A DNA stretch of 64,000 nucleotides, taken from NCBI GenBank assembly GCA_937863995.1, contig CALMIK010000009.1, positions 31,577 to 95,576 of the forward strand, read 5' to 3'. The translations under genes were made by a program, and so were the position numbers. This DNA is from an uncultured Chelatococcus sp. Its GTDB lineage: Bacteria > Pseudomonadota > Alphaproteobacteria > Rhizobiales > Beijerinckiaceae. The notes under the pieces were generated by a model. That model made no database searches and was not told where the DNA came from. It saw only the letters and a program-made list of their open reading frames with translations. Each line of letters opens with the position of its first letter. Positions within the stretch are counted from its first letter, which is position 1. This document shows, piece after piece, positions 40,000 through 61,872 of the stretch.

Positions 40000-40800
40000 T
40001 CAGTTCGCGGCCGCACGCCGCCAGCGTTCGGCGTTCATCTCCCATGGCCGGATCAGCAGATGCTCCACCGCCAGCATCACAACCACGAAGGCAAGCGCGT
40101 AAGCGATCACGTGGGCGATCTGAAACAGCTGGAAATACATGTGGATGCGAAAGCCGATGCCGCTCGATCGGCCGAGGAACTCGACCACGAGCACGATTTT
40201 CCAGATCACCGCGATACCGTTGCGCGCGGCGACGATGAAAAACGGCGCCAGCTGCGGCACGACGATGTGACGCAAGCGCCGCCCGGCCGGCAGCCGCGCC
40301 ACCTGGGCCAGTTCGTCGAGCGCGGGGTCGAGGGCGCGCGCGCCCTGACGCATCGTGACCAGCACCATCGCCGTCTTGTTGAGCGTCACGGCGGTGATCG
40401 CCGCCACCTCGTTGAGGCCGATCCACAGGTAGCATAACACGATCAGCACCAGCGCCGGCAGGTTCAGGAACACCGTCACCCACGGATCGGCCCAGCGGTC
40501 CAGCCACGGACAGCGCCCCAGCAGAACGCCGAGCACCGACCCCGCCGCCATCGCCAGACCGAACGCGACGGCCACGCGCACGAGCGTCGCCAGAAGGTCG
40601 CGCGGCAGCCGCCCCGCAGCGACCTCGTCCGCGAACACCCGCGCGACGGTCCAAGGCCCGGGCAGCACGGACGGGTCGGCCTTCGCCGCCGCCAGCGCCG
40701 CCCAGAGCGCGATCAGGGCGAGGATCGACAGGACGAAAATCCCCAGCGAGGTATCGTTGGCCGAGGTTGTTGCCCCGCCGCCGGCCGATTTTCCGATCAT
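40000..40800 (-). CDS. NitT/TauT-family ABC permease (partner of 50055-51621)
   Basis: Contains LPGPWTV, LNLPALV and WKIVLVVEFLGRSSGIG. Confidence 0.85.
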   Translation of the reverse strand: MIGKSAGGGATTSANDTSLGIFVLSILALIALWAALAAAKADPSVLPGPWTVARVFADEVAAGRLPRDLLATLVRVAVAFGLAMAAGSVLGVLLGRCPWLDRWADPWVTVFLNLPALVLIVLCYLWIGLNEVAAITAVTLNKTAMVLVTMRQGARALDPALDELAQVARLPAGRRLRHIVVPQLAPFFIVAARNGIAVIWKIVLVVEFLGRSSGIGFRIHMYFQLFQIAHVIAYALAFVVVMLAVEHLLIRPWEMNAERWRRAAAN

Positions 40801-40848
40801 CGTTTTTCTCCCCCTCCACTATAGCCTCGGCGCGGCGTGGCCTGCCTC

Positions 40849-40863
40849 GCGACCTTGGTCGTA
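40849..40863. promoter_or_regulatory. PQQ-island operator motif, copy 1
   Basis: GCGACCTTGGTCGTA in the divergent intergenic region. Confidence 0.75.
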
Positions 40864-40958
40864 TGTCGCTCGGCGCGCCGCCAGCCTATCTTTTCGTCGG
40901 GGAATGCCGGCGAAAAAGAACCGGCTCCGGAAAGTACGGCCCCTGGAGGAAACAGCCG

Positions 40959-43064
40959 ATGGGGAGGAGACTGGCGCTCCGGCTGGCCGCAGCGCTGTTC
41001 GCGTTGTGCGCCGCCGCCTTGTGCGCGGTGGCGGCTCCGCTGCCGCGCGAGGCGCTGGCGCCGATGATCGTGCCGCCCTACGCGCTGGGGGAGCCGGTCA
41101 ACGACAAAGGCGTGTGGACGCTGCTCAACTCCGGCGGCGCCGAGGCCGGCTACGTGTTCGAGACCGGCCCGCTCGCGCCCCTGCCGGGCTTTTCCGGCGC
41201 GCCGATCGACATGCTGGTCATGCTCGATCTCGGCGGGCGCTTTCTCGACGTGCGGCTCATCGCGCACAACGAACCCATCTTCGTGTCCGGCCTGGGGGAA
41301 GCGCCGTTCCGCGCCTTTCTGGAGCAGTATCGGGGCCGTTCGATCCGCGAGCCGCTCGTCGTCGGCACCCCTTACGGCACGGGCGGGAGCGGGTCCGAAC
41401 AGGTGCATCTCGACGGCGTGACCAAGGCCACGGCGTCGGTGCGGATCGCGCACGATTCGATCATGGCCGCCGCCTTCACCGTCGCCCGCGAGAAGATGGC
41501 CGGCATCGGCAACGCAGCGCCCGTGCGTCCCGCTCCTTCAGTAGACGAAGCGCTCGACTGGCAGGCGCTGGTGGACCAGGGCCTTGCCCGCAACCTGCGC
41601 GTGACCAACCGCGAAGTCGACGCGGCCTTCGCCGGCACGATCTGGGCCGACGACGATCCCGAGGCGGCGTCCGACCCCGACGTGCTCTACCTCGATCTGT
41701 GGGCCGTGGACCTCGGCCCGCCCTCCGTCGCCCGCGCGGTGCTGGACGACGCCAGCCTCAAGGATCTGCGGCGCTTCCTCGATGTCGCGGGCGACGACGA
41801 GCCGCTGCTGCTCATCGAGGCCGGCCGCCATGGCCTCGTGTCCGACGAATTCGTGCGCAACACCGCGCCCGACCGCTTGCTGGCGGAACAGGGCGGACTG
41901 CCGCTCCCGCTGCGCGACGCCGATATGTCGGTCTCGACGCGCCCCGGCGTTCCCGAAGGCAAGGCGATGGTCCTGCGCATCGACAGGCGGCTTGGCTTCG
42001 ATCCCACGCACGACTGGACGCTGTTCGCCCTCGCCACCCGCGCCCATGGCATGCTGCAGCCCGAAAACGGCTCGAAGCGCTTTCCGCTCGTGCTGCGCGC
42101 CGACCCGCGCTTCTATACGCGCGTCGAGGTTGCCGAGGCGCTCCCGCCCTGGCGGGAGGCCATGCTGCACCGCAAGTACGATCTCGCCGCGCTCGCCCTC
42201 TTCCTGCTGCCGCTGCTCGCGGCGCTCGGTCCCGGCATGCGCCCTCTGGCGGGAAGCAAACATTTCACCCCTGCCCGGCTGGCGATCCTGGCTGTCATGA
42301 TCGGCCTTGTCGGCTGGTGGGGACAGGGTCAGCTCTCCATCGTCACTGTTCTTGCGACGCTGCGCGCGGCGGCGGGCAACGGCTCGCTCACCGTCCTGCT
42401 CTACGATCCGTTCTCGCTGGTGGTGTGGGCTGCGGCCCTCACCGGCTTCGTGCTGTGGGGCCGGGGCCTGTTCTGCGGCTGGCTGTGCCCCTTCGGCGCG
42501 ATGCAGGAATTCGCCCACCACGCCGGGCGTCTGCTGCGGCTGCCGGAATACAACCCCTCGCCGCGTTGGGACGCGCGGCTGAAAGCGGGCAAATACGTCG
42601 CGCTCGCGGGGCTGGTCGCCGTCGCCTTTCTGCTGCCCGACGAAGCGGAGCGGGTCGCCGAGATCGAGCCGTTCAAGACCGCCGTCACCACGGGCTTTCA
42701 GCGCGAATGGTATTATGTCGCTTACGCGGCGGGGTGGCTGGTGCTGGGCATGGTCACCTTCAAGGGGTTCTGCCGCTACGTCTGCCCGCTCGGCGCCCTG
42801 ATGGCGATAGGCGGCCTGCTGCGGCTGCGCAACTGGATACCGCGCCGGGCCGAATGCGGCTCGCCCTGCCAGCTATGCAAGGTGCGCTGCCGCTACGGCG
42901 CGATCGAGAAAACCGGAAAGATCGCCTATTCCGAATGTTTTCAATGCCTTGACTGCGTCACGATCCACGACGACACGGCGCAATGCGTTCCGCTGGTGCT
43001 GGCCGCGAAAAGGCGGCAAACGGGCGAGCGAGCAAGACGCGCGCCGCGGGAGGCCACGATATGA
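40959..43064 (+). CDS. NosR/NirI-like membrane protein with FMN-binding and 4Fe-4S domains
   Basis: GGAGG RBS; DGVTKATAS; CGWLCPFG; FCRYVCPLG; CGSPCQLCKVRC; CFQCLDC. Confidence 0.85.
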   Translation: MGRRLALRLAAALFALCAAALCAVAAPLPREALAPMIVPPYALGEPVNDKGVWTLLNSGGAEAGYVFETGPLAPLPGFSGAPIDMLVMLDLGGRFLDVRLIAHNEPIFVSGLGEAPFRAFLEQYRGRSIREPLVVGTPYGTGGSGSEQVHLDGVTKATASVRIAHDSIMAAAFTVAREKMAGIGNAAPVRPAPSVDEALDWQALVDQGLARNLRVTNREVDAAFAGTIWADDDPEAASDPDVLYLDLWAVDLGPPSVARAVLDDASLKDLRRFLDVAGDDEPLLLIEAGRHGLVSDEFVRNTAPDRLLAEQGGLPLPLRDADMSVSTRPGVPEGKAMVLRIDRRLGFDPTHDWTLFALATRAHGMLQPENGSKRFPLVLRADPRFYTRVEVAEALPPWREAMLHRKYDLAALALFLLPLLAALGPGMRPLAGSKHFTPARLAILAVMIGLVGWWGQGQLSIVTVLATLRAAAGNGSLTVLLYDPFSLVVWAAALTGFVLWGRGLFCGWLCPFGAMQEFAHHAGRLLRLPEYNPSPRWDARLKAGKYVALAGLVAVAFLLPDEAERVAEIEPFKTAVTTGFQREWYYVAYAAGWLVLGMVTFKGFCRYVCPLGALMAIGGLLRLRNWIPRRAECGSPCQLCKVRCRYGAIEKTGKIAYSECFQCLDCVTIHDDTAQCVPLVLAAKRRQTGERARRAPREATI

Positions 43065-43933
43065 ACCGCCGCCGTTTCATGACCATCTGCGCCGCCGTCG
43101 CGGCCTCGCCGGCGCTGGCGCAGACCCACAGCTGGCAGGCGCAGGCACTCGGCGGCACCGTCAGCATAGACCTGCGCGGCCCCCGCCCCCTCGCAGCAGA
43201 AACCGGGCGGGCGATCGCCGACGCCATCGAGGCGGTGGAGGCGGCTGCAAGCCTCTTCCGGTCGGATTCCGCCCTGTCGCGGCTCAACCGCGCCGGCCGC
43301 CTCGACCACCCGCCGCCCATGCTGCGCGATCTGCTGGCGCTGGCAAGCCGGATGCACGCGGCAACGGGCGGCGTGTTCGATGCCAGCGTCCAGCCGCTGT
43401 GGCAGGCGCTGGCGGAAGGAGCGGACCCCGCCGCGGCCCGCGCCCGCATCGGCTGGGAGCATGTCCGCGTCGGGACATCCGTCGTTCTGGGCAACGGACA
43501 GGCGCTGACGCTGAACGGCATCGCGCAGGGCTATGCCGCCGACAAGATCCGCGCGATGCTGCAAGGGGCGGGATACGAACAGGTGCTCGTGGACATGGGC
43601 GAGTACGCGGCGCTCTCCGGCCCGTTCCGCATCGGCGTCGAGGACCCTGAGCTTGGCCTGATCGCTATCCATGCGTTGCGCGGCGACGCCATAGCCACCT
43701 CCAGCCCCGGCGCGATGCGGCTTGGCGCGGGCGGCCACATTCTGGGCCCGGCAGGTCAGCAGCCTGTGTGGTCCACGGTGTCGGTGCAAGCCGCCAGCGC
43801 CGGCGTGGCCGATGGCCTCTCCACCGCGTTTTGCCTGATGGGCACAGCGGCGATCCGCACGGCGATGCGTATGCTGCCGGAAGTGTCGGCCGTCACGGCG
43901 GTGGATCTGAAAGGAGACGTGACGACGTTTTGA
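43061..43933 (+). CDS. apbE: FAD:protein FMN transferase with Tat signal
   Basis: Tat signal MNRRRFM; SLFRSDSALSRLN, LNGIAQGYAAD, DMGE, ATSS and ADGLSTA. Confidence 0.88.
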   Translation: MNRRRFMTICAAVAASPALAQTHSWQAQALGGTVSIDLRGPRPLAAETGRAIADAIEAVEAAASLFRSDSALSRLNRAGRLDHPPPMLRDLLALASRMHAATGGVFDASVQPLWQALAEGADPAAARARIGWEHVRVGTSVVLGNGQALTLNGIAQGYAADKIRAMLQGAGYEQVLVDMGEYAALSGPFRIGVEDPELGLIAIHALRGDAIATSSPGAMRLGAGGHILGPAGQQPVWSTVSVQAASAGVADGLSTAFCLMGTAAIRTAMRMLPEVSAVTAVDLKGDVTTF

Positions 43934-43965: not shown

Positions 43966-44880
43966 TCAGCGGCTGGGCGCCTCGAAATCCAGCCCGTGTT
44001 CCTTGAATATCGCGGCGATGCGCCCGTCCGCCAGCGCAGCTTCGATCGCCGCATCGACGGCATACGCGAGGTCGCGGTGCTGGAAGTTGACGCCGACGCC
44101 GATCGTCCACCGCCCCCGGGCAAAGCCCGTGAACGGCGGCTCGTGCACCTTGATACCGGCTTCCGGGTGCAGGGCGGCGCCCGCCTGCAACTCGCCGCGC
44201 GGTCCCATCGCGGCTTTCGTCTCGCCTCCGGCCAGTGCGCCCACGGCGAGCAGCGTGCTGCGAAAGCGATGAATGTTGTCCACCGGGCCGATGAGCGATG
44301 TCAGGTAGAAATCCGAGATGGAATCGTTCTCCACCGCCACCGTGTCGAACCGGAAATAAGGCGCGGTCGGCCCCTTCTCGGGAAAATCCTTGGCCTTGTA
44401 GGCAATCGCGATGGCCTCGGTGGCGTACTGGCCGGTGAACACCACCTGCTCTATGCGGCAGGTCAGCAGGCTGTCGTAGGGCACGTGCAGCATCACGTCG
44501 CTGACGCGCCCGCCGATCACCGCGCCTTTCCAGACGTAATTGAACAGGTCGGCGTCGAGGTTGTCGCCCGCCTGCACCAGACGGAAGCGCGGCTCCACGC
44601 CGAGCTCGGCCGCGATGAGACGGCCGATGTCGATGTCGATCCCGCGCGCCTTGCCGCGCTCTTCCCACGACCACGGACGGAAATCCGCGTAGACGGCGAA
44701 TTCGATCCATCCGTCCTGCACGATACGGTCGAACGTGCGTCCCACATCCTGCGCGAACGTGTTCTGGGGTTTGGGCTGCGGCGGGAAATCCTCGCAGCGC
44801 GCCAGCGCGCCGTGAGGAAAGACAGCGCCGAGCCCCAGCGCCAGAACGGCGGCCGTGAGTGCGCGGGTGAGCCGAGACAT
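43966..44880 (-). CDS. Periplasmic binding protein of PQQ-ADH systems (MxaJ/XoxJ-like role)
   Basis: Family-3 SBP features (FAVYADFRPWS, GIDIDIGR); directly follows the cytochrome c550 gene. Confidence 0.75.
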   Translation of the reverse strand: MSRLTRALTAAVLALGLGAVFPHGALARCEDFPPQPKPQNTFAQDVGRTFDRIVQDGWIEFAVYADFRPWSWEERGKARGIDIDIGRLIAAELGVEPRFRLVQAGDNLDADLFNYVWKGAVIGGRVSDVMLHVPYDSLLTCRIEQVVFTGQYATEAIAIAYKAKDFPEKGPTAPYFRFDTVAVENDSISDFYLTSLIGPVDNIHRFRSTLLAVGALAGGETKAAMGPRGELQAGAALHPEAGIKVHEPPFTGFARGRWTIGVGVNFQHRDLAYAVDAAIEAALADGRIAAIFKEHGLDFEAPSR

Positions 44881-44883
44881 GCC

Positions 44884-45570
44884 TTACTCCGTTGCCGAAA
44901 GGCCGACCGTCAGGATTTCGCCCGCCCTCTTCCAGCTTTCAGGGGCGTCGCCCAGCGTGCGTGCGGCCTCGTAGGCCACGCTGTCCGCCACCGGCGCGCC
45001 GGAAGCCGTCTTCACCTGGCTTGCAATGCCCTCGAGCTCCTTCTTCAGCGCCGCCGGGTCCGCCACCTTGCCGGAAGCCAGCTCGTTGCGGATCGCATGC
45101 AGGCGGGCGGCGTGGTCGTCGAGAGCGCCGTCCTCGGGGCGGCTTTCGATGTAGGTTCGGATGGCCCATGCCGCCTTCTGGCCGAGAATGTCGCCGAAGG
45201 CCGGCATCTTCGTCACTCCGTCCTGCGTATAGCCGTGGCGGAAGCGGTCCACGTACCATTCGTCGCCATGCTCCTCCGCCTCGACGAAGCGCAGGTCGGG
45301 AGCGAGGCCGCCGGAGACAACGCCCAGTCCGTGGCAGCGGGCGCAGTTCTGGGTGTAGCCCGACGCGCCGATCTCGACCGCCTTGAGCCAGACATCGTGC
45401 CCGGCCTTGGCCTCGCGGTACGGGTTCTCGGTCAGCCATTCCTCGCCCACTTCGGGCAGGCCGTCTGTGTTCATCGGCTGCGGGGCCACGTCACCGTGAG
45501 CAACGGCCAGACTGACCGTCGCCACGAGCGCCAGCGCGGCAAGGCCGCCGCGAATGCGGGTCCTGGACAT
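44884..45570 (-). CDS. pedF: Cytochrome c550 (PedF/ExaB-type electron acceptor)
   Basis: Contains HGDVAPQPMNT, the heme motif CARCH, APDLR and the axial KMPAF. Confidence 0.85.
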   Translation of the reverse strand: MSRTRIRGGLAALALVATVSLAVAHGDVAPQPMNTDGLPEVGEEWLTENPYREAKAGHDVWLKAVEIGASGYTQNCARCHGLGVVSGGLAPDLRFVEAEEHGDEWYVDRFRHGYTQDGVTKMPAFGDILGQKAAWAIRTYIESRPEDGALDDHAARLHAIRNELASGKVADPAALKKELEGIASQVKTASGAPVADSVAYEAARTLGDAPESWKRAGEILTVGLSATE

Positions 45571-45654
45571 CTCTCCTCCTGCGTAATTTCTGGCTTACTT
45601 CGACGTTTTTCTACTTGTTCAAATGTGTAATGCCGCGCGGCTGGCGCGCGATAT

Positions 45655-45692
45655 GCGACCTTGGTCGCGGTCCGCATGGGACCTTGGTCGTA
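45655..45692. promoter_or_regulatory. PQQ-island operator motif, copies 2 and 3
   Basis: GCGACCTTGGTCGC (45655-45668) and GACCTTGGTCGTA (45680-45692). Confidence 0.78.
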
Positions 45693-45745
45693 TTTTCGCC
45701 AGCCGCGGTTCACGCCTACTCTTTCAGCAAGGGGAGGAAACAATC

Positions 45746-46969
45746 ATGCGTAAAGCGTGTGCGCGGCAGGGGGCGAGAGCTTCCCTGCTCATGATGGCGC
45801 GGGCCATGGCGATCGCCACGGCGACTGTCGGGCCGGGAGCCGCCACACTGGCGACCGCTGCCGAAATCGCCGTTCCCCTGACGTATCTCAGGCAGGAAGT
45901 CGAGGCGCCCCCCGTCCTCTCCAACCTCGACCCCATCCCGGAAGACCTGGGCGTCGCCGGCGCGGAGGTCGCGCTCGCGGACACGAAGACCACCGGCCGC
46001 TTCCTCGGCCATGCCTACAGCCTGGAGGTGGTTTCGGTGGAACCGGGCGGCGACCTCGCCGGCGCGGCGAAAGCGGCGCTCGCGGCCTCGCCCGCGTTGT
46101 TCGTCGATGCGCCGGCCGACGACATCCTCGCCATCGCCGACCTGCCCGAGGCCGCAGGCAAGCTCATCTTCAACGTGGCGTCGGGCGACCGCAAGCTGCG
46201 CGACGGCGACTGCCGCGCGAACGTGCTGCACACAATCCCCGAGGACGCCATGCGCGCCGACGCGTTGATGCAGGTGCTGAAAGCCCGCCGCTGGACACGC
46301 ACCGCGCTCATCGTGGGGCCGAAGCCGCAGGACGCGGCTTTCGCGGCGACATTGCGCGCCTCGGCGGCGAAGTTCGGCGTCACGATCGCGGCCGAGAAGG
46401 CGTGGACGTTCGACACCGACCTGCGCCGGGCGGCCGGTCAGGAAATTCCGCTGTTCACACAAGGTTTTCCGGATCACGACATCCTGCTCGTGGCGGACGA
46501 GGCCGACGATTTCGCCCGCTACGTGGAGCACAACACCTGGCTTCCCCGCCCGGTCGCGGGCTCGGACGGGTTGCGCGGCGAGGGCTGGGCGCCGGTGCTG
46601 GAACAATGGGCCGCCGTGCAGCTCCAGAACCGTTTCGAGAAAGCGGCGAAGCGCGAGATGCGCAGCCGCGACTACGCCGCCTGGACCGCGCTGCGCACCG
46701 TCGGCGAAGCGGTGACGCGCACGAACTCCGCCGATCCCGCGACATTGCGCGGCTTCATCCTGTCGGATGCCTTCGCGCTCGACGGCTTCAAGGGCCGCAC
46801 GCTGACCTACCGCCGGTGGAACGGGCAGTTACGCCAGCCGATGGCGGTGGTGAATGCCCGGGCGCTGGTCGAGCTCGCGCCGCTCGAGGGCTACCTGCAC
46901 CAGATCAACGAGATGGACACGCTCGGCCTCGACAAGCCGGAAAGTGCCTGCAAAGCCTTTGGAGGATGA
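45746..46969 (+). CDS. ABC substrate-binding protein of the PQQ-ADH system (LutA-like)
   Basis: GGAGG RBS; LR..DCRANVLHTIP, MRADALMQ, LQNRFEK and FKGRTLTYRRWNGQLRQP. Confidence 0.8.
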   Translation: MRKACARQGARASLLMMARAMAIATATVGPGAATLATAAEIAVPLTYLRQEVEAPPVLSNLDPIPEDLGVAGAEVALADTKTTGRFLGHAYSLEVVSVEPGGDLAGAAKAALAASPALFVDAPADDILAIADLPEAAGKLIFNVASGDRKLRDGDCRANVLHTIPEDAMRADALMQVLKARRWTRTALIVGPKPQDAAFAATLRASAAKFGVTIAAEKAWTFDTDLRRAAGQEIPLFTQGFPDHDILLVADEADDFARYVEHNTWLPRPVAGSDGLRGEGWAPVLEQWAAVQLQNRFEKAAKREMRSRDYAAWTALRTVGEAVTRTNSADPATLRGFILSDAFALDGFKGRTLTYRRWNGQLRQPMAVVNARALVELAPLEGYLHQINEMDTLGLDKPESACKAFGG

Positions 46970-46970: not shown

Positions 46971-47939
46971 ATGAAAACCCGCACCGGCCTCGCCGCGTTC
47001 CTCATGATGACCGCATTGCCGCTGGCGGCTGGCGCGGGCGAAATCTGGGTCACCAACGAAAAAGACGACACGATATCGGTCATCGATATCGACAAGCTGG
47101 AAGTCGTGCGCACGATCAAGACGGGCGAGCGCCCGCGCGGCATCACCTTCAGCTCGGACCACAGCCGCGTATACATCTGCGCCTCCGATAGCGACACCGT
47201 GCAGGTGATGGATCCCGCCACCGGCCAGGTTCTCCACGACCTCCCCTCGGGCGAGGACCCGGAGCAGTTCGTGCTCTCGCCCGACGACCGGCACCTGTGG
47301 ATCGCCAACGAGGACAACGCCGTGACCACGGTCGTCGATGTCGAAACCCGGCAGGTGGTGGCGCAGATCGATGTCGGCATCGAGCCGGAGGGCATGGCGA
47401 TCTCGCCCGATGGCAAGATCGCGATCACCACCTCCGAAACCACGAACATGGCCCACTGGATCGACACCGCCACCCACAAGGTTTTCGCCAACACCCTCGT
47501 CGACAGCCGCCCCCGCCACGCGGAATTCACCAAGGGAGGCAGCGAACTCTGGGTGTCGTCGGAAATCGGCGGCACGGTGACCGTGTTCAACACGGCGGAC
47601 CAAAGCGAAAAGGGCAAAATCCGCTTTGCGATCAAGGGCGTTAACCCGGACCTCATCCAGCCGGTGGGTTTCGAGTTCACCCCCGACGAAAAAACCGCCT
47701 TCGTGGCGCTCGGCCCGTCCAACCACGTCGCCGTGGTCAACGCCGAGACGCTGGAGGTCGAGAGCTACATCCTCGTCGGCCGCCGGGTGTGGCACCTCGC
47801 CTTTTCGCCCGACCACAGCAAGCTGTTCACGACGAACGGCGTTTCCGGCGATGTCACGGTAATCGACGTCGCGACGCGCGAACCCGTGAAATCGATCAAG
47901 GTCGGCCGCTTCCCGTGGGGCGCGGCGACACGGCCCTGA
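46971..47939 (+). CDS. YVTN beta-propeller protein (PedA1/LutB-like)
   Basis: Signal peptide, WVTNEKDDTISVID and repeated GxxPxG blades. Confidence 0.85.
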   Translation: MKTRTGLAAFLMMTALPLAAGAGEIWVTNEKDDTISVIDIDKLEVVRTIKTGERPRGITFSSDHSRVYICASDSDTVQVMDPATGQVLHDLPSGEDPEQFVLSPDDRHLWIANEDNAVTTVVDVETRQVVAQIDVGIEPEGMAISPDGKIAITTSETTNMAHWIDTATHKVFANTLVDSRPRHAEFTKGGSELWVSSEIGGTVTVFNTADQSEKGKIRFAIKGVNPDLIQPVGFEFTPDEKTAFVALGPSNHVAVVNAETLEVESYILVGRRVWHLAFSPDHSKLFTTNGVSGDVTVIDVATREPVKSIKVGRFPWGAATRP

Positions 47940-48001: not shown

Positions 48002-48454
48002 ATGAAGCGCATGACCGTGATCGCGGCCCTGATGGCAGCAACCCTGCCTTTCGGCGCATCGGCGAACGACGACGACGACAAGGGCAAGCTGGGCCTCGCG
48101 GGCCTCTTGTCGTCGCAGAACCGCGAGGTGCTGCCGAAGCTCACGCTTTCCGCCGGAGCGCCTCTGGCCGCGGCCCCGCTGAAGCTGAAATCCGGCAAGT
48201 ACTACAAGCTGCAGATCCAGGCCGACGGCAGCCAGGAACTCGCGCTGGAAGGGCCGGGCTTCTTCCGCTCCATCTGGGTCAACGAAGTTGTCATCGAGGG
48301 CATCGAGATCCGGCCGCTGGGCATCGATTCGCTGGAGTTCGACGAGGCGGGTGAGGCCGAGATCAGCTTCATCGCCATCAAGCCCGGCAGCTACCACCTG
48401 AAGGTACCCGGCACGACGGGCGATTTGCAGACCGTCGCCATCACCATCGAGTAA
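48002..48454 (+). CDS. Small exported acidic protein of unknown function (possibly cupredoxin-like fold)
   Basis: Signal peptide ending ASA, mature N-terminus NDDDD, FIAIKPGSY, and no Cys. GGAGG RBS. Confidence 0.75.
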   Translation: MKRMTVIAALMAATLPFGASANDDDDKGKLGLAGLLSSQNREVLPKLTLSAGAPLAAAPLKLKSGKYYKLQIQADGSQELALEGPGFFRSIWVNEVVIEGIEIRPLGIDSLEFDEAGEAEISFIAIKPGSYHLKVPGTTGDLQTVAITIE

Positions 48455-50027: not shown

Positions 50028-50054
50028 GGCTGACATCGGAACAAGGCACGGCGG

Positions 50055-51621: not shown

Positions 51622-51672
51622 GCCAATTCCTCCTTTTTTCCTGTATCCTATTGGCAATACGGCAGCGGGATA

Positions 51673-51728
51673 TACGACCAAGGTCCCGTATCGGATGCCG
51701 GCCCGCGGGCAATGTTACGACCAAGGTG
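51673..51728. promoter_or_regulatory. PQQ-island operator motif, copies 4 and 5
   Basis: TACGACCAAGGTC (51673-51685) and TACGACCAAGGTG (51716-51728), 43 bp apart. Confidence 0.78.
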
Positions 51729-51827
51729 CAATATACCGCCCCGTTGCACGCACCAATAATGACGGAAATGGCTGGACGACCTGCGGCAAAGCTCCGTGAT
51801 CCGCGCCATGATCCGAGGGAGGATATA

Positions 51828-53672: not shown

Positions 53673-54395
53673 ATGTCCGGCTCTTTCGATTTCTTCCGGG
53701 ATTCCCGCATTCCCCTCGCGGCCGAGCCGGCGCCGGGCGCCGTCGACATGCGCTCGATGCTGATCGTCGACGATCACCCGCTGTTTTGCGACGCGCTCGC
53801 CATGACACTGACACGCCTCGTCGGCATCGAGACGGTGGAAGCCGTCGGCACGCTCGAGATGGCGCTCATGCGGCTTGAAGCCGGCCCGACGCCCGACGTC
53901 GTGGTGCTCGATCTCAACCTGCCCGACGTGAGCGGCCTCGACGGCGTGGTGCGCCTGCGCAAGGCGATCCCCTCGACGCCGATCGTCGTGGTGTCGTCGC
54001 TCGACGAACTGCGCGTGACGCGGGCGGCGCTGCGGGCGGGCGTCAACGCCTTCGTGCCCAAGCATGCCGAGCGCGAGGAATTCCGCGCCGCCTTCGCGGC
54101 CATCAGCCGGGGCGAGGTGTATGCCGGACGCATGGCGCTGGAGGTCACGGCGCCCTCCCCCTCCGAGCACGTCATCGCGCGGCTGGCGCTGCTCACGCGG
54201 CAGCAGGCCAAGATACTGGAGATGGTCTGCGAGGGACTGATGAACAAGCAGATCGCCTACGAGCTCTCCATCGCCGAAACCACGGTGAAAGCGCATCTGA
54301 CGGCAATCATGCGCAAGCTCGGCGTCCAGACGCGCATGCAGGCCGTGCTGTTCGTGAAAGAGGCCAGTTTTTCCGCCCTCACGCCGGAAGGCTAA
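53673..54395 (+). CDS. NarL/LuxR-family response regulator (ErbR/PedR1/FlhR-like)
   Basis: Contains IVDDHPL, VLDLNLPD and the HTH NKQIAYELSIAETTVKAH. Confidence 0.92.
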   Translation: MSGSFDFFRDSRIPLAAEPAPGAVDMRSMLIVDDHPLFCDALAMTLTRLVGIETVEAVGTLEMALMRLEAGPTPDVVVLDLNLPDVSGLDGVVRLRKAIPSTPIVVVSSLDELRVTRAALRAGVNAFVPKHAEREEFRAAFAAISRGEVYAGRMALEVTAPSPSEHVIARLALLTRQQAKILEMVCEGLMNKQIAYELSIAETTVKAHLTAIMRKLGVQTRMQAVLFVKEASFSALTPEG

Positions 54396-54558: not shown

Positions 54559-55734
54559 ATGAAACAGGCCGGACGGCCTACGGATGCTCACGCATCGATT
54601 ATCCGCAGGGCCTGCGTGCCGGCGGCAAACCTGCGCGCCGCCGAGGACCTTGCCGGGATGCTCGGGCCGGGGCCTTTCGCGCTCGTCATCGTGTTCACCT
54701 CTCCCGACGCCGATCTGGCGCGGCTGTCGGCGCAGGCGGCGCAAGTCTTCGCCGGGGCGAGGCTCATCGGCTGCACCACGGCGGGAGAGATTTCCGACGC
54801 CGGCTACGACGACAACACGATCGTCGCGGTGGCGCTGCCCGCATCGCATTTCGGCGCGGAAACCCTCACCATTCCCGACCTGTCGCGGCTTGAGCCGCGC
54901 GACCTCACGACGGCCGTGGCGCGGGCGCGCGAGGCGCTGGCACGCGATTATCCCACTCTCCCGCACGCGTTCGCCATGCTGCTCGTCGATGGGCTTTCGG
55001 TGAAGGAGGACGAGCTCGCATCGGCGCTCTCGGCAGGCCTCGGGTCAATGCCGCTGCTGGGCGGCTCCGCCGGCGACGGCACACGCTTCCAGCAGACGTT
55101 CGTCATCGACGGCGACCGGCTGCTGCGGAACGCGGCGGTGCTGGCTTTCGTGCGCAGCGCGTGCCCGATGCGGATATTCAACCTCGACCACCTGATACCG
55201 ACCAAGAAGCGCATGGTGGTGACGCTGGCGGAGCCGCGCCGGCGCATCGTGCGCCGGATCAACGACGAACCGGCGGCGCAGGAATATGCGCGCCTGCTGG
55301 GCAAGGACCCGCTACAACTCACGCCCTTCAACTTCGCCGCGCATCCGCTGGCCGTGCGCATGGGCGAGCGCCACCACGTGCGCGCGGTGCAGCAGGTGAC
55401 GCCGGATGGCGATCTGGTGTTCTTCTCCGCCATCGACGAGGGCGTCGTGCTGACGCTCGCCGAGCCGCAAGACATCGCCCAGCATCTCGAACACGAGCTC
55501 GACCGGCTGAGTGAACCGGCGCAACCCGTTGCGGTCGTCGCCTTCGATTGCATCCTGCGCCGGCTCGAGGCGCAGGAAAGGCAGGTCACGGGCCGCGTGT
55601 CGGACATCCTGCGCAGGCATGGCGTGACGGGTTTCTCGACCTACGGCGAGCAGTTCGGCGCGCTGCACGTCAACCACACGATGACCGGGATCGCGTTCTA
55701 CGCACCCGGCACCGCGCTGCCCGAGGACGGCTGA
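54559..55734 (+). CDS. FIST N/C-domain sensory protein
   Basis: Contains GCTTAGEI, LVDGLS, GGSAGD, AFDCILR and GFSTYGEQ. Confidence 0.9.
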   Translation: MKQAGRPTDAHASIIRRACVPAANLRAAEDLAGMLGPGPFALVIVFTSPDADLARLSAQAAQVFAGARLIGCTTAGEISDAGYDDNTIVAVALPASHFGAETLTIPDLSRLEPRDLTTAVARAREALARDYPTLPHAFAMLLVDGLSVKEDELASALSAGLGSMPLLGGSAGDGTRFQQTFVIDGDRLLRNAAVLAFVRSACPMRIFNLDHLIPTKKRMVVTLAEPRRRIVRRINDEPAAQEYARLLGKDPLQLTPFNFAAHPLAVRMGERHHVRAVQQVTPDGDLVFFSAIDEGVVLTLAEPQDIAQHLEHELDRLSEPAQPVAVVAFDCILRRLEAQERQVTGRVSDILRRHGVTGFSTYGEQFGALHVNHTMTGIAFYAPGTALPEDG

Positions 55735-57965
55735 TGGCGCGCATTTCCGAATGGCTGATCGACCCCGACGACACGCCCGAGCGCACGATCGAAAAGCTCC
55801 TGACCATCACCGAGGTGCTGATGCGCCAGGTCGAGCAGGCTTCGGGCGAGCGCGGCGCGGCCTATGAACAGTTTCGCCGCGCGGCGTTGCTGGAAGACCG
55901 CGTGCGCCAGCGAACGCTCGACCTGGAATACGCCCTGCGCCTGCTGGGCGAGACCAATTCCCGCCTCACCACCGCGAAGCGCACGGCGGAACGGGCGCAG
56001 CGCGATCTCGCCAACGCCATCGAGGCCGTGCAGGAAGGCTTCGCGCTGTTCGACGAGACGGACACGCTGGTGCTGCACAACTCCCGCTTCTGCCGTGACT
56101 TGCCGGATGTCCGCCGTGGCCTGCGCGCGGGCATGGCGCTGTCCGAATACGTGGATCTCGTCGGCTATTCCGCCTCGCTCTCCCTGCCCGCCGACCAGAC
56201 ACGCGAGGAGTGGGTGAAGGAGCGGATGCAGCGCCACCACGACCGGCAGGTGTTCAACGTGGCCCTCACCGGCGACCGCTGGCTGCAGGTCAGCTCCCAG
56301 CGCATCAACGGCGGCGGCACGGTGATGCTCCAGACCGACGTCACGGACATCATCCGGCTGGAACGGATCGAACGCGGCAAGATGCTCGACAATCAGGCGC
56401 GGATCATCCGCGCCACGCTCGAACACATCAGCCAGGGCGTCTGCATCGTCGATGTCAACCTGCGTCTCGTGGGCTGGAACAAGCGGCTCGCCCAGCTTCT
56501 GGACATGCCCCCCGCCTCGCTGCGCCAGGGCGCGGGGTTCGACAGCCTTCTGCGCCACTTCGGCAACGACAGCATCTACCAGGAACATGTGTCGTTCGAG
56601 GCGCTCGCCATCTGGGCGCGTCAGGCAAGGCCGCGTCCGCCGCAGTCGTTCGAGATACGCCGCGCGTCGGGCGTGATACTCGACGGATACGCGCGGGAAA
56701 CGCCCGAGGGCGGATTCGTGATTTCCTTCAGCGACGTCACGCGCGAGCGGCTGGCGGTGCAGGCCATGCTGCGCGCCAACGCCTCGCTGGAGGCGCGGGT
56801 GGCCGCGCGGACGCTCGACCTGGAGGCGGCGCTGGAAGACGCTGAACGGGCCAATGCCTCGCGCGTGCGCTTCGTGGCGGCGGCGAGCCACGATCTGCTG
56901 CAGCCGCTCTCGGCAGCCAAGCTTTTCATCGCCTCCGCTCGCGACGACGACCCCAGCCCGCTGGTGCGCTCGACGCTGGGAAAGGCGCTCAACGCGTTGG
57001 TCAGCGTGGAGGGAATCCTGCACGCGCTGCTCGACATCTCCCGGCTGGAGGTAGGCGAATCCGCCGTCGAGATCGTGCCGGTGCGGCTCGTGCCCCTGCT
57101 CGCCCAGCTCACGGACGAGTTCGCGCCTGTCGCCGCCGGAAAGGGACTGCGGCTGACGATCGTGCCAAGCCGGCTCACCGTGGCGAGCGACCCGGCCTAC
57201 CTGCGGCGCATCCTGCAAAACCTGATCGGCAACGCCATCCGCTACACGCGCACGGGGCGGGTGCTGGTCGGCGCGCGGCGCTCGGGCGGGAAAATCCGCA
57301 TCGAAGTGCATGACACCGGCCCCGGCATCGCCCCCGAGGACCAGCAGCTCATCTTCCGCGAGTTCCACCGGCTCAACGGCTCGGCGTCCGCGTCGGAGGG
57401 CATGGGCCTCGGCCTCGCCATCGTGCAGCGGGCGTGCGCGCTGCTCAACCACAGGCTGTCGCTAACGTCGGAACCGGGGCGCGGCACGTCGTTCTCGGTC
57501 GAGATGGCGTTGTCGGCGCCCGATTCCATGCTGTCGTGCCCGGGCCTGATCGTCACCGGCGCCGATGAACCGCGCGACGGCAGCAACCGGATCGCGCTGC
57601 TTGTCGGCAGCGCTCCCGACCTGCGGCGGGAGCTGGGCATGCAGCTTGAGCGGCGCAACATCACCGCGTGGGAGGTCGGCAACGGCGATGAGGCGCTGGC
57701 GCTGCTGGAGGAAATCGGCATCGTGCCCGACTTCTACCTCGTGGATCAAGACCTTGACGCAGGCGCGGGCTGCATCGAGACGGTGCGCGCGCTCCACGAA
57801 GGCTGGGGCGAGCGGCCGACACGCATCCTGACCGTGGAGCCGGCCTGCGGATCGTTGGCGGAGAGCGGAATCGAGTGCCTGCGCAAGCCCGTGGAGGACG
57901 CGGCGCTGGATGCCTTCATCGCCGGCGCGGCCTCGTTCTCTCCACCGCTTTCCCCCGCGCGCTGA
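55734..57965 (+). CDS. PAS-fold hybrid sensor histidine kinase (FlhS/ErcS/PedS1-like)
   Basis: H-box [10 protein letters not shown]-box NLIGNA, DTGPGI, GMGLGL and a C-terminal receiver domain. Confidence 0.9.
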
Positions 57966-57966
57966 C

Positions 57967-57992
57967 TACGACCAAATCGCGACCAAGGTCGC
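57967..57992. promoter_or_regulatory. PQQ-island operator motif, copies 6 (degenerate) and 7
   Basis: TACGACCAAATCG followed by GCGACCAAGGTCGC (57979-57992), upstream of pseudoazurin. Confidence 0.75.
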
Positions 57993-58051
57993 ATTGTTCG
58001 CCGGCCCGTTTCCATGTCCTCTGTAACCAACGAATAATCACGGAGGAACGG

Positions 58052-58498
58052 ATGCGCGCAAGTTTGGCAATCGCCATCAACGCCGGGCTCGTAACGGCAT
58101 GGCTGGCGACCGGAGCAGCGCTGGCGGCCGAGCACGAAGTCAAGATGCTCAACCAGGGCCCGAACGGGACCATGGAATTCCAGCCTGCCGCGATCAAGGC
58201 CGCACCGGGCGATACCGTCCGCTTCATTCCCACCGACAAGAGCCATAACGTCGAGGGAATCAAGGGGATGCTGCCGGAGGGCGTCGCGCCTTTCAAAAGC
58301 AAGATCAACGAGGAATTCGTGCTGACGCTGACCGAGCCCGGCATCTACGGTGTGAAATGCACGCCGCATTTCGCCATGGGAATGGTCGCGGTCATCCAGG
58401 CCGGAGACGCGCCGGCCAATCTCGAGGCGGCAAAGGCTGTGAAGCTGCCGAAAAAGGCCGCGGAACGGATAGAGGCGGCATTCGCGGAACTGCCGTGA
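58052..58498 (+). CDS. Pseudoazurin (type I copper protein)
   Basis: Contains VKMLN, the Cu ligands SHN and CTPH..M, and a GGAGG RBS. Start set at MRASL. Confidence 0.92.
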
Positions 58499-58583
58499 GC
58501 AGCGGAAATCAGCAATCCGCCAGCGGGCACCATGCGTAAACACAGTTTAGTTACATCGCAATCGATCACTTTACAATAGATAG

Positions 58584-58647
58584 CCATCAATATATACTAT
58601 CGTAATGGCTGATTACGTATCATCCATTAGGGTAACCCATCAATATA
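58584..58647. repeat. 11-bp direct repeat in the AT-rich pqqA upstream region
   Basis: CCATCAATATA at 58584-58594 and 58637-58647. Confidence 0.8.
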
Positions 58648-58659
58648 AAGGAGGGAAGA

Positions 58660-58743
58660 ATGGCCTGGAATACACCTTTTATTGTCGAAATCTGCGTCGG
58701 CCTTGAGGTCAACGCCTATTTTCCGGCTGACATCGAAAACTGA
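58660..58743 (+). CDS. pqqA: PQQ precursor peptide
   Basis: Translates MAWNTPFIVEICVGLEVNAYFPADIEN*, with the E-x3-Y motif and an AAGGAGG RBS; directly upstream of pqqB. Confidence 0.95.
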   Translation: MAWNTPFIVEICVGLEVNAYFPADIEN

Positions 58744-58767
58744 CGCAAGCCGGGAACGAAGCGGGCC

Positions 58768-59694
58768 ATGACGATGTCTGACCCGTCCTCCCGCCTGCGG
58801 CTCGTGGTACTCGGCTCAGCGGCCGGCGGGGGTTTCCCCCAGTGGAATTGCCGCTGCCCCGTCTGCTCGCTGGCATGGAGCGGAGACCCACGTGTCCGCA
58901 GGCGGACCCAGACATCCATCGCGGTCAGCGTGGATGGCGAGCGGTGGGCGCTGGTGAACGCCGCACCGGAGATCCTGTCCCAGATTCAGGCTGTGCCCGT
59001 GCTGCATCCACGGGTGCCGGGCCGGTGCACGCCGGTGGTTTCCGTGCTGCTCACCAACGCCGACATCGATCACGTCGCGGGGCTGCTAAGCCTGAGGGAG
59101 GCGCAATCGTTTTCCCTATACGCGACGCATGCAGTCCATGACGTGATCGCCGCCAACAGCGTGTTCGACGTTCTCGCGGCCGGCGTGGTCGAAAGGCCAC
59201 GCGTGGCCCTGAACACGCCTTTTCCGCTGCTCGACGGTCTCACCGCCGAGATATTCCCGGTGCCAGGCAAGGTCGCGCTCTATCTGGAACGCGGCGAGGT
59301 CGACACCGCGGCGGAGGGCGAGCAGACCGTGGGGGTGGAGTTCAACCACGGCACGCGCCGCATCCTGTTCATTCCGGGCTGCGCCCTCATGACGGATGCC
59401 TTGCGCGCGCGCATCGACGGAGCGAACGTGGTGCTGTTCGACGGCACCGTATGGCGCGACGACGAGATGATCGTCGCCGGTGTCGGCAGCAAGACCGGCA
59501 AGCGCATGGGCCATATGGCGATATCGGGCGCGGACGGCTCCATGGCGGCCTTTGAGGGACTGCGCGTCAGCCGCAAGGTTTATGTGCATCTCAACAACAC
59601 CAACCCGGTGCTCGTCGAGGGATCGCCCGAACGGCGCGCGGTGGAACGCGCGGGCTGGGAAGTGGCGGAAGACGGAATGGAGCTTGCAGGATGA
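58768..59694 (+). CDS. pqqB: PQQ biosynthesis protein B
   Basis: Contains LGSAAGGGFPQWNC, RTQTSIA, DIDHVAGL, MGHM and HLNNTNP. Confidence 0.95.
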   Translation: MTMSDPSSRLRLVVLGSAAGGGFPQWNCRCPVCSLAWSGDPRVRRRTQTSIAVSVDGERWALVNAAPEILSQIQAVPVLHPRVPGRCTPVVSVLLTNADIDHVAGLLSLREAQSFSLYATHAVHDVIAANSVFDVLAAGVVERPRVALNTPFPLLDGLTAEIFPVPGKVALYLERGEVDTAAEGEQTVGVEFNHGTRRILFIPGCALMTDALRARIDGANVVLFDGTVWRDDEMIVAGVGSKTGKRMGHMAISGADGSMAAFEGLRVSRKVYVHLNNTNPVLVEGSPERRAVERAGWEVAEDGMELAG

Positions 59695-60446
59695 CAGGAT
59701 TGCTCTCCCCTCAGGAGCTGGAGGCGGCGCTGCGCGATGTCGGGACGCGGCGCTATCACAACCTGCATCCGTTCCACAGGCTGTTGCATGGCGGCCGGCT
59801 CGATGTCGGGCAGGTGCGGGCATGGGCGCTCAACCGCTATTATTATCAGGCGATGATTCCGGTGAAGGATTCCTCGATCCTCGCCCGCATGGAAGAGCCC
59901 GAGCTGCGGCGCAGCTGGCGCCAGCGCATCATCGATCACGACGGCGAACACGAAGGCGAAGGCGGCATCGCGCGCTGGCTCAGGCTCACCGACGGCCTCG
60001 GGCTCGACCGCGAATACGTCACGTCGCTGCGCGGCCTGCTGCCCGCCTCCCGCTTCGCGGTCGAGGCCTATGTGCATTTCGTGCGCGAAAAAACGCTTCT
60101 CGAAGCCATCGCCTCCTCTCTCACCGAGATGTTCTCGCCGAACATCATCGAGGAGCGCGTCGCCGGCATGCTGAAGAATTACGATTTCATCTCGCCGGAA
60201 ACGCTGGCCTACTTCAACAACCGCCTCACGCAGGCCCCGCGCGACGCCGATTTCGCGCTGGACTACGTCAAGAGCCACGCCCGCACGCCCGAGCAGCAAC
60301 AGGCGGCGATCCGCGCCCTCGAATTCAAGTGCGACGTGCTCTGGGTGCAGCTCGACGCCCTCTACTTCGCCTACGTGGACCCGAAGGCAGGTTATCCGGG
60401 CGCGTTCGTCCCCGCTGCCGGCGACAGCCCGGAGGAAAGGCCGTGA
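59691..60446 (+). CDS. pqqC: PQQ synthase
   Basis: Contains [25 protein letters not shown] and FKCDVLW. Confidence 0.95.
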
Positions 60447-60754
60447 GCGCCCCCCTGCCCGCCGACTGCGTGCCGAAGCTGGCGCGCGGCGTGCGCCTGC
60501 GCCGCGACGAGGCGCGCGAACAATGGGTGCTGCTCGCGCCCGAGCGTGTGCTGCAGCCCGATCCCGTCGGCGTCGAAATTCTCAGGAAGGTCGATGGCGT
60601 GCGCACGTTCACGGTCATCGTCGACGAGCTCGCGGCCGCCTTCACCGCCGACCGCACGCGCATCGCCACCGATGTCGGCGCCTTTCTCGCCGGTCTGGTG
60701 GAAAAGGGAATGGTCGAGATCGTCACGCCGTCATCGGAACAGGCAGCGCCATGA
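60443..60754 (+). CDS. pqqD: PqqA-binding chaperone
   Basis: GTG start overlapping the pqqC stop; PKLARGVRL...WVLLAPERV. Confidence 0.9.
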
Positions 60755-61872
60755 GCGCCGTCGCCGACAGCGGCGCGCCGGCAAAGGCGCCAGCCCCGCT
60801 GCCCGTGCCCTACGGCATGCTGGCGGAACTCACGCATCGCTGTCCGCTGCAATGCCCCTATTGCTCCAACCCGGTGGAGCTGGAACGCCGCACCGGCGAG
60901 CTCGACACCGAAACATGGCTGCGCGTGTTCACTGAGGCGGCGAAGCTCGGCGTGCTCCAGGTTCACCTGTCCGGCGGCGAGCCGACAGCGCGGCGCGATC
61001 TCGAGCAGATGATCGCGCATTGCGTCGAGGTGGGGCTTTACACCAACCTCATCACGGCCGGAGTGGGCGTCACGCCGGAACGCCTGCGGGCGATATCGGA
61101 CGCGGGCGTCGACCACGTCCAGCTCTCCTTCCAGGGAGCGGATGCGCCAACCACCGATCATGTGTCGAATTTCTCAGGCGCGCACGAACGCAAGCTCGCC
61201 GTCGCCCGTGAAGTACGCCGGCTCGGCTTGCCCCTCACCGTCAACGCGGTTGTGCACCGGGCGAACATCCACCAGATCCCGGCCTTCATCGACCTGGCGC
61301 TCGCGCTGGACGCGCGGCGCATCGAGATCGCCCACGCGCAGTATTACGGCTGGGCGCTGCGCAACCGCGGCGCGCTCATGCCGACGCGCGACCAGGTTTT
61401 CGAAGCTCTCGCCACGGTCGAGGAAGCGCGGGAGCGGCTGAAGGGCAGGCTCACCATCGATGCTGTGGTTCCGGACTATTACGCGAAATATCCAAAGCCG
61501 TGCATGAACGGCTGGGGCCGGCAGTCCCTCAACGTCACGCCTTCCGGCAAGGTGTTGCCGTGCCACGCGGCGGAAACCATCCCGAACCTCGACTTCTGGA
61601 ACGTGCGCGACCACGGCCTGGCGGAAATATGGACCGGCTCGCCGGCCTTCCACGCCTATCGCGGCACGCACTGGATGCCGCACCTGTGCCAGACCTGCGA
61701 GCGCCGCGAGATCGACTGGGGCGGCTGCCGCTGCCAGGCGATGGCCATCGCGGGCGATGCGGCGGCCACCGATCCGGCCTGCCATAAATCGCCGCTCCAC
61801 GCGCGCATGCTCGCTCTCGCCGAGACGGACGCCTCTACGGCAAGCGCCTACGACTACCGGCGCTATAGCTGA
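60751..61872 (+). CDS. pqqE: Radical SAM PqqA cyclase
   Basis: Contains [31 protein letters not shown] and GGCRCQA. Confidence 0.95.

Follow-up and report, generated by a model that had tools for sequence, protein, structure and literature searches.

The window analysed here is a stretch of 64,000 nucleotides from an uncultured Chelatococcus sp. (assembly GCA_937863995.1, contig CALMIK010000009.1, positions 31,577 to 95,576), and all positions below are window coordinates unless a contig is named. Between 40000 and 61872, i.e. over ~22 kb, it carries a gene cluster for a PedH-type pyrroloquinoline quinone (PQQ) alcohol dehydrogenase that is predicted to depend on lanthanides. The same cluster holds the genes for PQQ synthesis, candidate transporters for PQQ and for lanthanides, cytochrome c550, pseudoazurin, a NosR-like membrane protein with its ApbE flavin transferase, and a sensor system (Table 1). 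The gene map, obtained by gene calling guided by GC content at third codon positions (GC3) together with hidden Markov model (HMM) scans, includes every gene in the parts list of a sequence-only reading of the same DNA, and most of these genes exceed curated family cut-offs. The boundaries given in that reading are also borne out: the cluster is flanked by a PotABCD-like transporter on the left and an autotransporter on the right, and positions 40000 and 61872 thus delimit it exactly. We regard the locus, with a probability of about 85%, as the ped/exa regulon in its alphaproteobacterial version, serving the oxidation of alcohols in the periplasm.

The dehydrogenase at the centre of the cluster exceeds the cut-off of TIGR03075, the PQQ methanol/ethanol dehydrogenase family (761 vs 480 bits), and contains both a vicinal Cys-Cys pair and the signature WDFDGVNE, in which an extra Asp lies two residues past the catalytic Asp (D-x-D). 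Calcium enzymes have Ser or Ala at the position that this extra Asp occupies in lanthanide enzymes. Related loci agree, as WD[FY]DG is what all 78 of those with a locatable motif read. When compared with solved structures, the protein scores 832 bits with PedH (6ZCV), 680 bits with the Ca-type ExaA (1FLG), and ~307–338 bits with XoxF structures. On these scores, the enzyme is PedH/ExaF-like and not XoxF, and its signature and closeness to the solved PedH predict a lanthanide requirement. The genome (3.53 Mb in 99 contigs, 97% complete) yields one TIGR03075 match, and tblastn with PedH across it finds no second PQQ propeller. The lack of a Ca-type paralogue, noted by the sequence-only reading for the cluster, therefore applies genome-wide, and the PQQ synthesis and transport of the whole genome apparently serve PedH as their single enzyme.

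The genes pqqABCDE are all present and in order, with an E-x3-Y motif in the PqqA peptide, PqqB, PqqC, and PqqE above equivalog cut-offs, and PqqD matching PF05402. The periplasmic binding protein encoded beside pedH matches the solved PqqT of Methylorubrum extorquens (9B1U) with an E-value of 3.8e-67 over 289 residues. In the solved protein, Lys142 contacts PQQ (PMC11331073), and this residue is kept here, with LDKNW aligned to VDKSW. PedA1, PedA2, and PedB exceed the cut-offs of families defined on transporters associated with PQQ alcohol dehydrogenases, and share an operon with the ABC-2 permease PedC. A study in Pseudomonas putida, the one species for which this has been shown, reports that the PedA1A2BC transporter is needed for lanthanide-dependent growth (PMC6839425), and by analogy the system encoded here is a candidate lanthanide transporter. 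Both transporter assignments of the earlier reading, for PQQ and for lanthanides, are upheld by these matches. Sequence searches of the PDB with PedA1, the NosR-like protein, and the small exported protein returned nothing useful.

The region upstream of pqqA (58520–58660) has a composition of its own. In a genome of 67% GC it forms an AT-rich stretch of ~130 bp without the promoter motif described below, and it contains two copies of CCATCAATATA as well as a CTTTACAAT element that the two Pseudochelatococcus loci share at the equivalent place before pqqA. A Rhodospirillaceae locus (L069) differs in having the GACCAAGGTC motif in this upstream region instead.

Relative to naive calls of open reading frames (ORFs), the starts of several genes were revised, i.e. 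those of the nosR-like gene (40959), apbE (43061), pedA2 (46971), the kinase gene (55734), the pseudoazurin gene (58052), and pqqE (60751). For pedC, the longest ORF (49184–50143) was ruled out, as it has no family match, lies in the wrong GC3 phase, and is less similar to relatives; the frame 49197–50027 was picked on GC3 and on 75–93% identity among the top matches listed from related loci. An apparent 449-residue fusion of PqqD and PqqE was also ruled out, with pqqD being a gene of its own that overlaps pqqE. An Rfam scan of the cluster gave nothing at E ≤ 0.1. The autotransporter gene on the right (61995–63998) is large, encodes a PF03797 beta-domain, is convergent with pqqE, and extends past the right end of the window.

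Table 1. Genes and promoter regions of the cluster in window coordinates, with related sites in other genomes in the last row (genome:contig:position).
Feature	Position	Strand	Evidence
SsuC/TauC-type ABC permease, detached membrane subunit of the PqqT-type transporter	40000-40800	-	PF00528, 79 bits
Divergent permease/nosR-like promoter region	40801-40958		exact GACCTTGGTCGTAT at 40851-40864
Ped-type NosR-like (NapH-like) membrane protein, iron-sulfur motifs and putative FMN-binding region	40959-43064	+	NF046105, 431 bits (cut-off 1000); PF12801, 57 bits
ApbE flavin transferase, twin-arginine signal MNRRRF	43061-43933	+	PF02424, 141 bits
PedG/XoxJ-like protein with periplasmic binding-protein fold	43966-44880	-	PF00497; named from position and fold family only
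Cytochrome c550 PedF	44884-45570	-	TIGR04494, 188 bits (cut-off 122)
Divergent pedF/pedA1 promoter region	45571-45745		motif sites 45653-45670, 45680-45693
PedA1 periplasmic binding protein	45746-46969	+	TIGR03863, 469 bits (cut-off 414)
PedA2 YVTN beta-propeller protein	46971-47939	+	TIGR03866, 517 bits (cut-off 287)
Small exported acidic protein, 150 aa, Cys-less, predicted cupredoxin-like fold	48002-48454	+	no family match; AlphaFold2 and Foldseek
PedB ABC ATPase	48463-49200	+	TIGR03864, 344 bits (cut-off 302)
PedC ABC-2 permease	49197-50027	+	PF01061, 105 bits
TauB/SsuB-like ABC ATPase of the PqqT system	50055-50699	-	PF00005, 96 bits
PqqT-type periplasmic PQQ-binding protein	50650-51621	-	PDB 9B1U, E 3.8e-67
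Divergent pqqT/pedH promoter region	51622-51827		motif sites 51672-51685, 51715-51728
PedH-type PQQ alcohol dehydrogenase, predicted lanthanide-dependent	51828-53594	+	TIGR03075, 761 bits (cut-off 480); WDFDG; vicinal PCC
NarL/LuxR-type response regulator, AgmR/ErbR/ErdR-like	53673-54395	+	PF00072 and PF00196; ErdR model, 159 bits (cut-off 390)
NosP-like FIST sensor protein	54559-55734	+	FIST N and C domains; NF041558, 367 bits (cut-off 450)
NahK/ErcS'/PedS1-like PAS histidine kinase	55734-57965	+	PAS_7, HisKA, HATPase_c; near_NosP_CTERM model NF041832, 272 bits (cut-off 400)
Pseudoazurin promoter region	57966-58051		motif site 57977-57994
Pseudoazurin	58052-58498	+	TIGR02375, 169.5 bits (cut-off 110)
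pqqA precursor peptide (…EVNAY…)	58661-58744	+	read directly from the sequence
pqqB	58768-59694	+	TIGR02108, 401 bits (cut-off 245)
pqqC	59691-60446	+	TIGR02111, 394 bits (cut-off 240)
pqqD	60443-60754	+	PF05402, 52 bits
pqqE radical SAM/SPASM enzyme	60751-61872	+	TIGR02109, 558 bits (cut-off 381)
XoxF-linked NosR/NapH-like sites in other genomes	G123:C1:2253520-2257364; G279:C1:1248707-1252540; G186:C83:16399-19255

The proteins of the cluster were compared by tblastn with 80 related loci (handles beginning with L) from three orders, the Hyphomicrobiales, Rhodobacterales, and Rhodospirillales. PedH is most similar to its homologues in Pseudochelatococcus (92–93% identity), which probably places the source organism in or near that genus. 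Both Pseudochelatococcus genomes contain the same cluster, with protein identities of 67–94%. PedH is also ~77–86% identical in Rhizobium, Shinella, Gemmobacter, Paracoccus, many roseobacters, and one Rhodospirillaceae metagenome-assembled genome. The gene order that recurs is nosR-like, apbE, pedG, pedF, pedA1, pedA2, the small protein, pedB, pedC, (ATPase, pqqT), pedH, regulator, nosP, kinase, (pseudoazurin), (pqqBCDE). The gene pedG lies beside pedF in 64 of the 80 loci. The sequence-only reading had described the locus as self-contained and its accessory modules as unusual, and neither description survives. Loci from across the Alphaproteobacteria contain the NosR-like/ApbE pair, the PqqT system, and the small exported protein in this same arrangement, and clusters of NapH-like flavinylation genes with the "ethanol oxidase" ExaA were already catalogued in 172 genomes by Méheust et al. 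2021 (eLife, PMC8238504). As for self-containment, no gene for outer-membrane lanthanide uptake, histidine phosphotransfer (Hpt), or aldehyde dehydrogenase lies inside the locus.

The response regulator, NosP-like protein, and kinase have the same domain architectures and the same adjacency as the NosP/NahK(ErcS')/AgmR(ErbR) set of Pseudomonas, where the ped cluster likewise includes nosP-pedS1-agmR (PMC12997753). A DNA motif shared by four promoters, proposed by the earlier reading, is located at all four of them (Table 1) and is enriched over shuffled sequence. Specifically, the 14-mer GACCTTGGTCGTAT has three exact occurrences in the window, and when up to 3 mismatches are tolerated the count rises to 11 (2.3 expected), a number reached in 0 of 100 shuffles. 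The core of the motif is a near-palindrome, CGACC-WW-GGTCG. Genome-wide, we find 17 GACCWWGGTC cores, and 5 of these fall within the cluster, which represents 0.6% of the genome. The 12 cores outside it comprise 8 inside genes and 4 that are seemingly intergenic; the latter were rejected as regulon members since they flank unrelated genes, which were named from their translations as ABC transporter and acyl-CoA synthetase-like, queC/queF-like, ftsH/tilS/tolB-like, and dapD-like genes.

The motif is also conserved among relatives. Allowing at most 1 mismatch, 28 of 78 related loci have a site in the 300 bp preceding pedH, compared with 8% of random windows from the same loci, and the motif is found at the same position upstream of pedH in other genera. 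The site upstream of the pseudoazurin gene is shared with five loci (L002, L003, L006, L010, and L011). Among the cluster genes scanned, that of the LuxR-type response regulator encodes the only DNA-binding protein found, and this regulator is probably the binder of GACC-WW-GGTC, a candidate operator.

The NosR-like protein scores 431 bits with the NosR equivalog model, below its cut-off of 1000 bits, and canonical copies in relatives reach 783–808 bits. It is ~30% identical to canonical NosR, and their alignment shows two CX3CP motifs and two 4-Cys iron-sulfur motifs with all cysteines kept. The predicted site for flavin mononucleotide (FMN) reads LDGVTKATAS; the form DGV[T/S]KATASV is found in 21 of 24 full-length ped-type sequences, and the FMN-site Thr is present in every ped-type sequence aligned. 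The equivalent site is SGAT in canonical NosR and S-R-A-T in a NirI-like paralogue. By score and FMN-site signature, the NosR-like proteins of these clusters are a distinct, ped-linked paralogue group. The copies in the cluster are the only NosR-like gene and the only ApbE gene of the genome. PedH is encoded 8.8 kb downstream, such that a PF12801 protein, an ApbE, and a dehydrogenase presumably of K00114 type occur in one cluster. Literature searches on NosR in combination with pedH, xoxF, or PQQ found no direct description.

Among 18 loci with at least 3.3 kb of flanking sequence past pedG, 14 have a NosR-like gene and/or ApbE beside pedG, with ApbE in 12 of these 14. We also searched 300 genomes, sampled evenly from the class, with the NosR-like protein of the window. 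Scores in this sample are bimodal, i.e. 4 genomes have a copy at 614–999 bits (47–66% identity), while the remainder do not exceed 307 bits. All 4 high-scoring ped-type genes are located 8–14 kb from a PedH-type gene, which is itself present in 8 of the genomes. The ped-type NosR-like gene of one sampled genome (G257:C1:2004838-2006889) contains an in-frame TGA, for which a pseudogene, a sequencing error, or recoding are possible explanations. In three other alphaproteobacterial genomes, more distant NosR/NapH-like genes (205–240 bits to the NosR-like protein of the window) lie directly beside XoxF-like PQQ dehydrogenase genes (~360–380 bits to PedH; Table 1), indicating that the pairing with NosR/NapH-like proteins is not confined to PedH-type enzymes.

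Only 8 of the 80 loci, all of them from Hyphomicrobiales, include pseudoazurin. The protein encoded here shows the type 1 copper ligands His, Cys, His, and Met in its sequence. On another contig (C34:28918-29283), this genome, which has neither nirK nor nosZ, carries a further pseudoazurin gene with 55% identity to that of the cluster.

The small exported protein of 150 residues has no family match and no PDB sequence match, and is kept between pedA2 and pedB in 50 of the 80 loci. Its AlphaFold2 model, built from 49 sequences, has a mean confidence (pLDDT) of 85.9 and shows a cupredoxin-like beta-sandwich, for which Foldseek retrieves the cupredoxin domains of copper nitrite reductases with an E-value of 8e-7. 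The protein has zero Cys and one His, and thus cannot form a type 1 copper site. Among homologues, the acidic residues D75, E79, E95, E102, E112, and D114 are invariant. A role in lanthanide handling would be plausible. Many homologues also have a poly-Asp run right after the signal peptide.

Given the presence of NosR-like, ApbE, and pseudoazurin genes in an alcohol oxidation cluster, their origin and function can be read in several ways. NosR and ApbE/NosX are classic accessories of nitrous oxide (N2O) reductase, pseudoazurin donates electrons to NirK and NosZ, and the closest relatives P. lubricantis and Shinella possess both nosZ and nirK. On this basis, these genes might be a leftover of, or a link to, denitrification, and their position beside the alcohol genes would be accidental or would serve the anaerobic oxidation of alcohols. 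We consider such an origin very improbable, as the genome contains no nosZ (TIGR04244; relatives with nosZ, used as controls, scored 1100–1125 bits) and no nirK (545 bits for the positive control in relatives; nirS was not searched for). A further nosZ probe, PF18764, gave no match and was discarded because the controls were silent too. Furthermore, the NosR-like protein is distant from canonical NosR in identity and in score (431 vs ~800 bits), and where a genome has nosZ, a canonical NosR gene adjoins it (783–808 bits) in addition to a separate ped-type copy (419–442 bits). The ped-type copy was near PedH in 4 of 4 cases in the 300-genome sample, and carries the motif of the cluster. The proximity to PedH, the separate canonical NosR of nosZ genomes, and the lack of nosZ and nirK here all suggest that the NosR-like/ApbE pair would be a functional companion of PedH rather than a stray remnant of denitrification.

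In the swap model, proposed for NapH-like/ExaA clusters by Méheust et al. 2021 (PMC8238504), the flavoprotein is the electron exit from the dehydrogenase to the respiratory chain and replaces cytochrome c. The NosR-like protein does hold every cofactor ligand of a transmembrane conduit. However, PedF co-occurs with the NosR-like gene, both in this locus and in 64 of 80 related ones, meaning that the NosR-like protein accompanies the cytochrome and that a simple replacement does not fit. Electron transfer from PQQH2 or c550 through low-potential FMN and iron-sulfur centres to quinone would also be thermodynamically uphill, judging from standard potentials, and overall we find replacement unlikely. 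Alternatively, quinol or a cytoplasmic donor may supply reducing equivalents that the pair delivers outward, thereby activating or maintaining PedH, free PQQ, or the cupredoxin. This possibility, which we hold tentatively and at somewhat less than even odds, agrees with a NosR architecture that includes the periplasmic FMN domain and cytoplasmic iron-sulfur motifs, with the co-occurrence with c550, and with the apparent co-regulation with pedH, pqqT, and pseudoazurin via the shared motif. It is nevertheless an analogy, modelled on NosR keeping N2O reductase active; we know of no reductive activation step in PedH-type enzymes, and roughly a quarter to half of PedH clusters have no NosR-like/ApbE, so the pair is not essential. 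A related proposal, somewhat more doubtful, is that the pair forms a second electron line alongside c550, either for outward low-potential electrons or for coupling to the quinone pool, and that, separately, the cupredoxin-like protein is a new lanthanide handler.

The locus as a whole could also be a recently acquired genomic island that brought a new and strictly lanthanide-dependent alcohol metabolism. PedH is equally similar to homologues from Gemmobacter (85%) and from Rhizobium/Shinella (84–86%), the PqqT module occurs here but is missing from the corresponding site of the sister species, and no Ca-type paralogue exists. We nonetheless judge recent acquisition to be quite improbable. The term "island", used by the sequence-only reading, is not supported by composition, with a GC content of 0.674 in the cluster and 0.659 in the genome. 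No mobility genes occur among those annotated within or directly beside it, no long repeats turned up at the edges of the locus in a generic repeat search, and no integrase or tRNA boundary was noted. The presence of the cluster in both Pseudochelatococcus genomes also speaks against a recent arrival.

The metabolic part of that proposal is countered by lanthanide-independent routes elsewhere in the genome. Specifically, there are 10 genes with a zinc alcohol dehydrogenase (ADH) fold, including an AdhP equivalog (358 bits, cut-off 344; contig C23:~15000-18085) that adjoins a same-strand aldehyde dehydrogenase gene and with it likely provides an NAD-linked ethanol route, and a class III ADH on contig C13 (622 bits, cut-off 544). 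Aldehyde dehydrogenase genes number 21 genome-wide and 0 in the cluster, as the earlier reading had stated for the latter. The suggestion made there that alcohol use could be strictly lanthanide-dependent is thus upheld in part: it stands for the periplasmic PQQ route, which has no Ca-type back-up, and fails for alcohol use overall, which need not depend on lanthanides given AdhP, the class III ADH, and the aldehyde dehydrogenases. Two of the 21 aldehyde dehydrogenase genes lie in the window (17705–19090 and 19279–20661), ~20 kb upstream, and belong to a different catabolic cluster.

As an alphaproteobacterial ped/exa regulon, the locus would operate as follows. PqqABCDE would make PQQ, which the PqqT-type ABC system would bind and import, while the PedA1A2BC-type ABC system and the Cys-less cupredoxin-like periplasmic protein may handle lanthanides. 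With Ln3+ and PQQ, PedH would oxidise alcohols to aldehydes in the periplasm and pass electrons to cytochrome c550 (PedF), and probably also to pseudoazurin, on their way to a terminal oxidase; the aldehyde would then be oxidised by dehydrogenases encoded outside the cluster. The presumably flavinylated NosR-like iron-sulfur protein, matured by its own Tat-exported (twin-arginine translocation) ApbE, could connect this chain with the electron pool of the membrane or the cytoplasm. The LuxR-type regulator, acting with the NosP-like sensor and the NahK/ErcS'-like kinase, probably binds GACC-WW-GGTC, and binding would co-activate four sets of genes: permease/nosR-apbE, pedF-pedG/pedA1A2-x-BC (x being the small protein), pqqT-ATPase/pedH, and pseudoazurin. 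The analysis establishes the gene identities, the synteny, the enrichment and conservation of the motif, and the lack of other PQQ dehydrogenases, nosZ, and nirK; we infer every biochemical role, which way electrons move through the NosR-like protein, and the identity of the motif binder.

A number of observations weigh against this interpretation. The PqqT transporter is divided over two transcription units, with the binding protein and ATPase adjoining pedH and the permease 9 kb away, divergent from the nosR-like gene. The same split is found in Pseudotabrizicola and Gemmobacter loci (L014 and L041), and the permease, pqqT, and ATPase are contiguous in loci of Pelagibius and Rhodobacter capsulatus (L038 and L007). 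Moreover, Pseudochelatococcus lubricantis (L002), the closest sequenced relative, is without the PqqT module at this site. A gene for outer-membrane lanthanide uptake is absent from the locus, the genome not having been searched for TonB receptors, lanmodulin, or lanthanophore genes. None of the three signalling proteins (regulator, NosP, and kinase) reaches an equivalog cut-off (ErdR 159/390, NosP 367/450, NahK 318/1500, and near_NosP_CTERM 272/400), and they are therefore named by their architecture and by comparison with the ped cluster of Pseudomonas. Lastly, the flavinylation site of the NosR-like protein has Lys where canonical NosR has Gly, and its match to PF04205 (FMN_bind) is weak (E = 0.086), with the region aligning to the FMN site of NosR.

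The cluster is complete yet fairly ordinary, and the discovery is modest because its components and their co-occurrence are already known. Its value lies in being a compact and well-delimited example of periplasmic alcohol oxidation predicted to be lanthanide-only. With a single local motif, one ApbE, one NosR-like protein, and neither nosZ nor nirK, this organism, or a close cultured Pseudochelatococcus, offers a clean background that bears on the role of the NapH/NosR-like flavoprotein, on the binder of GACC-WW-GGTC, and on lanthanide binding by the cupredoxin-like protein.

Among known systems, the ped cluster of Pseudomonas putida KT2440 and the exa cluster of P. aeruginosa share with this locus a PedH-type ADH, PedF, PedA1/A2/B/C, the NosP-like, NahK-like, and LuxR-type proteins, and an adjacent pqq operon. 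By contrast, the locus has no genes for a Ca-type PedE/ExaA, the PedI/ExaC aldehyde dehydrogenase, PedS2/PedR2, YiaY, or a porin, and it adds the NosR-like/ApbE pair, the PqqT-type ABC system, pseudoazurin, and the small cupredoxin-like protein within the pedA-C operon. In Methylorubrum extorquens, PqqT is the counterpart of the PQQ-binding protein found here, which retains the PQQ-contacting Lys but has a detached permease. The order of the ABC operon (binding protein, YVTN propeller, ATPase, permease) is presumably like that of the lut cluster of M. extorquens. That cluster differs in that a TonB receptor (LutH-like) and lanmodulin are not in our locus, no genome search having been made for them, and in that the dehydrogenase here is PedH/ExaF-like and not XoxF.

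Like the NosR/NosX(ApbE) proteins of N2O reductase systems, the NosR-like/ApbE pair has a periplasmic FMN domain, here predicted, with its Thr, two CX3CP motifs, two 4-Cys iron-sulfur motifs, and a partner ApbE. It differs from them in its ~30% identity and score (431 bits against a cut-off of 1000), in having TKAT rather than SGAT, and in belonging to a genome without nosZ. With the NapH-like/ExaA clusters of Méheust et al. 2021 (PMC8238504), the locus shares a PF12801 iron-sulfur membrane protein, ApbE, and a PQQ dehydrogenase presumably of K00114 type; an N-terminal extracytosolic FMN domain, as in those clusters, is a candidate feature here. In their model the flavoprotein stands in for cytochrome c, whereas c550 accompanies it in this locus and in most of the related ones; the ped-type T/S-K-A-T FMN site and the apparent co-regulation through the motif, as predicted from sequence, would go beyond what the consulted parts of the study describe.

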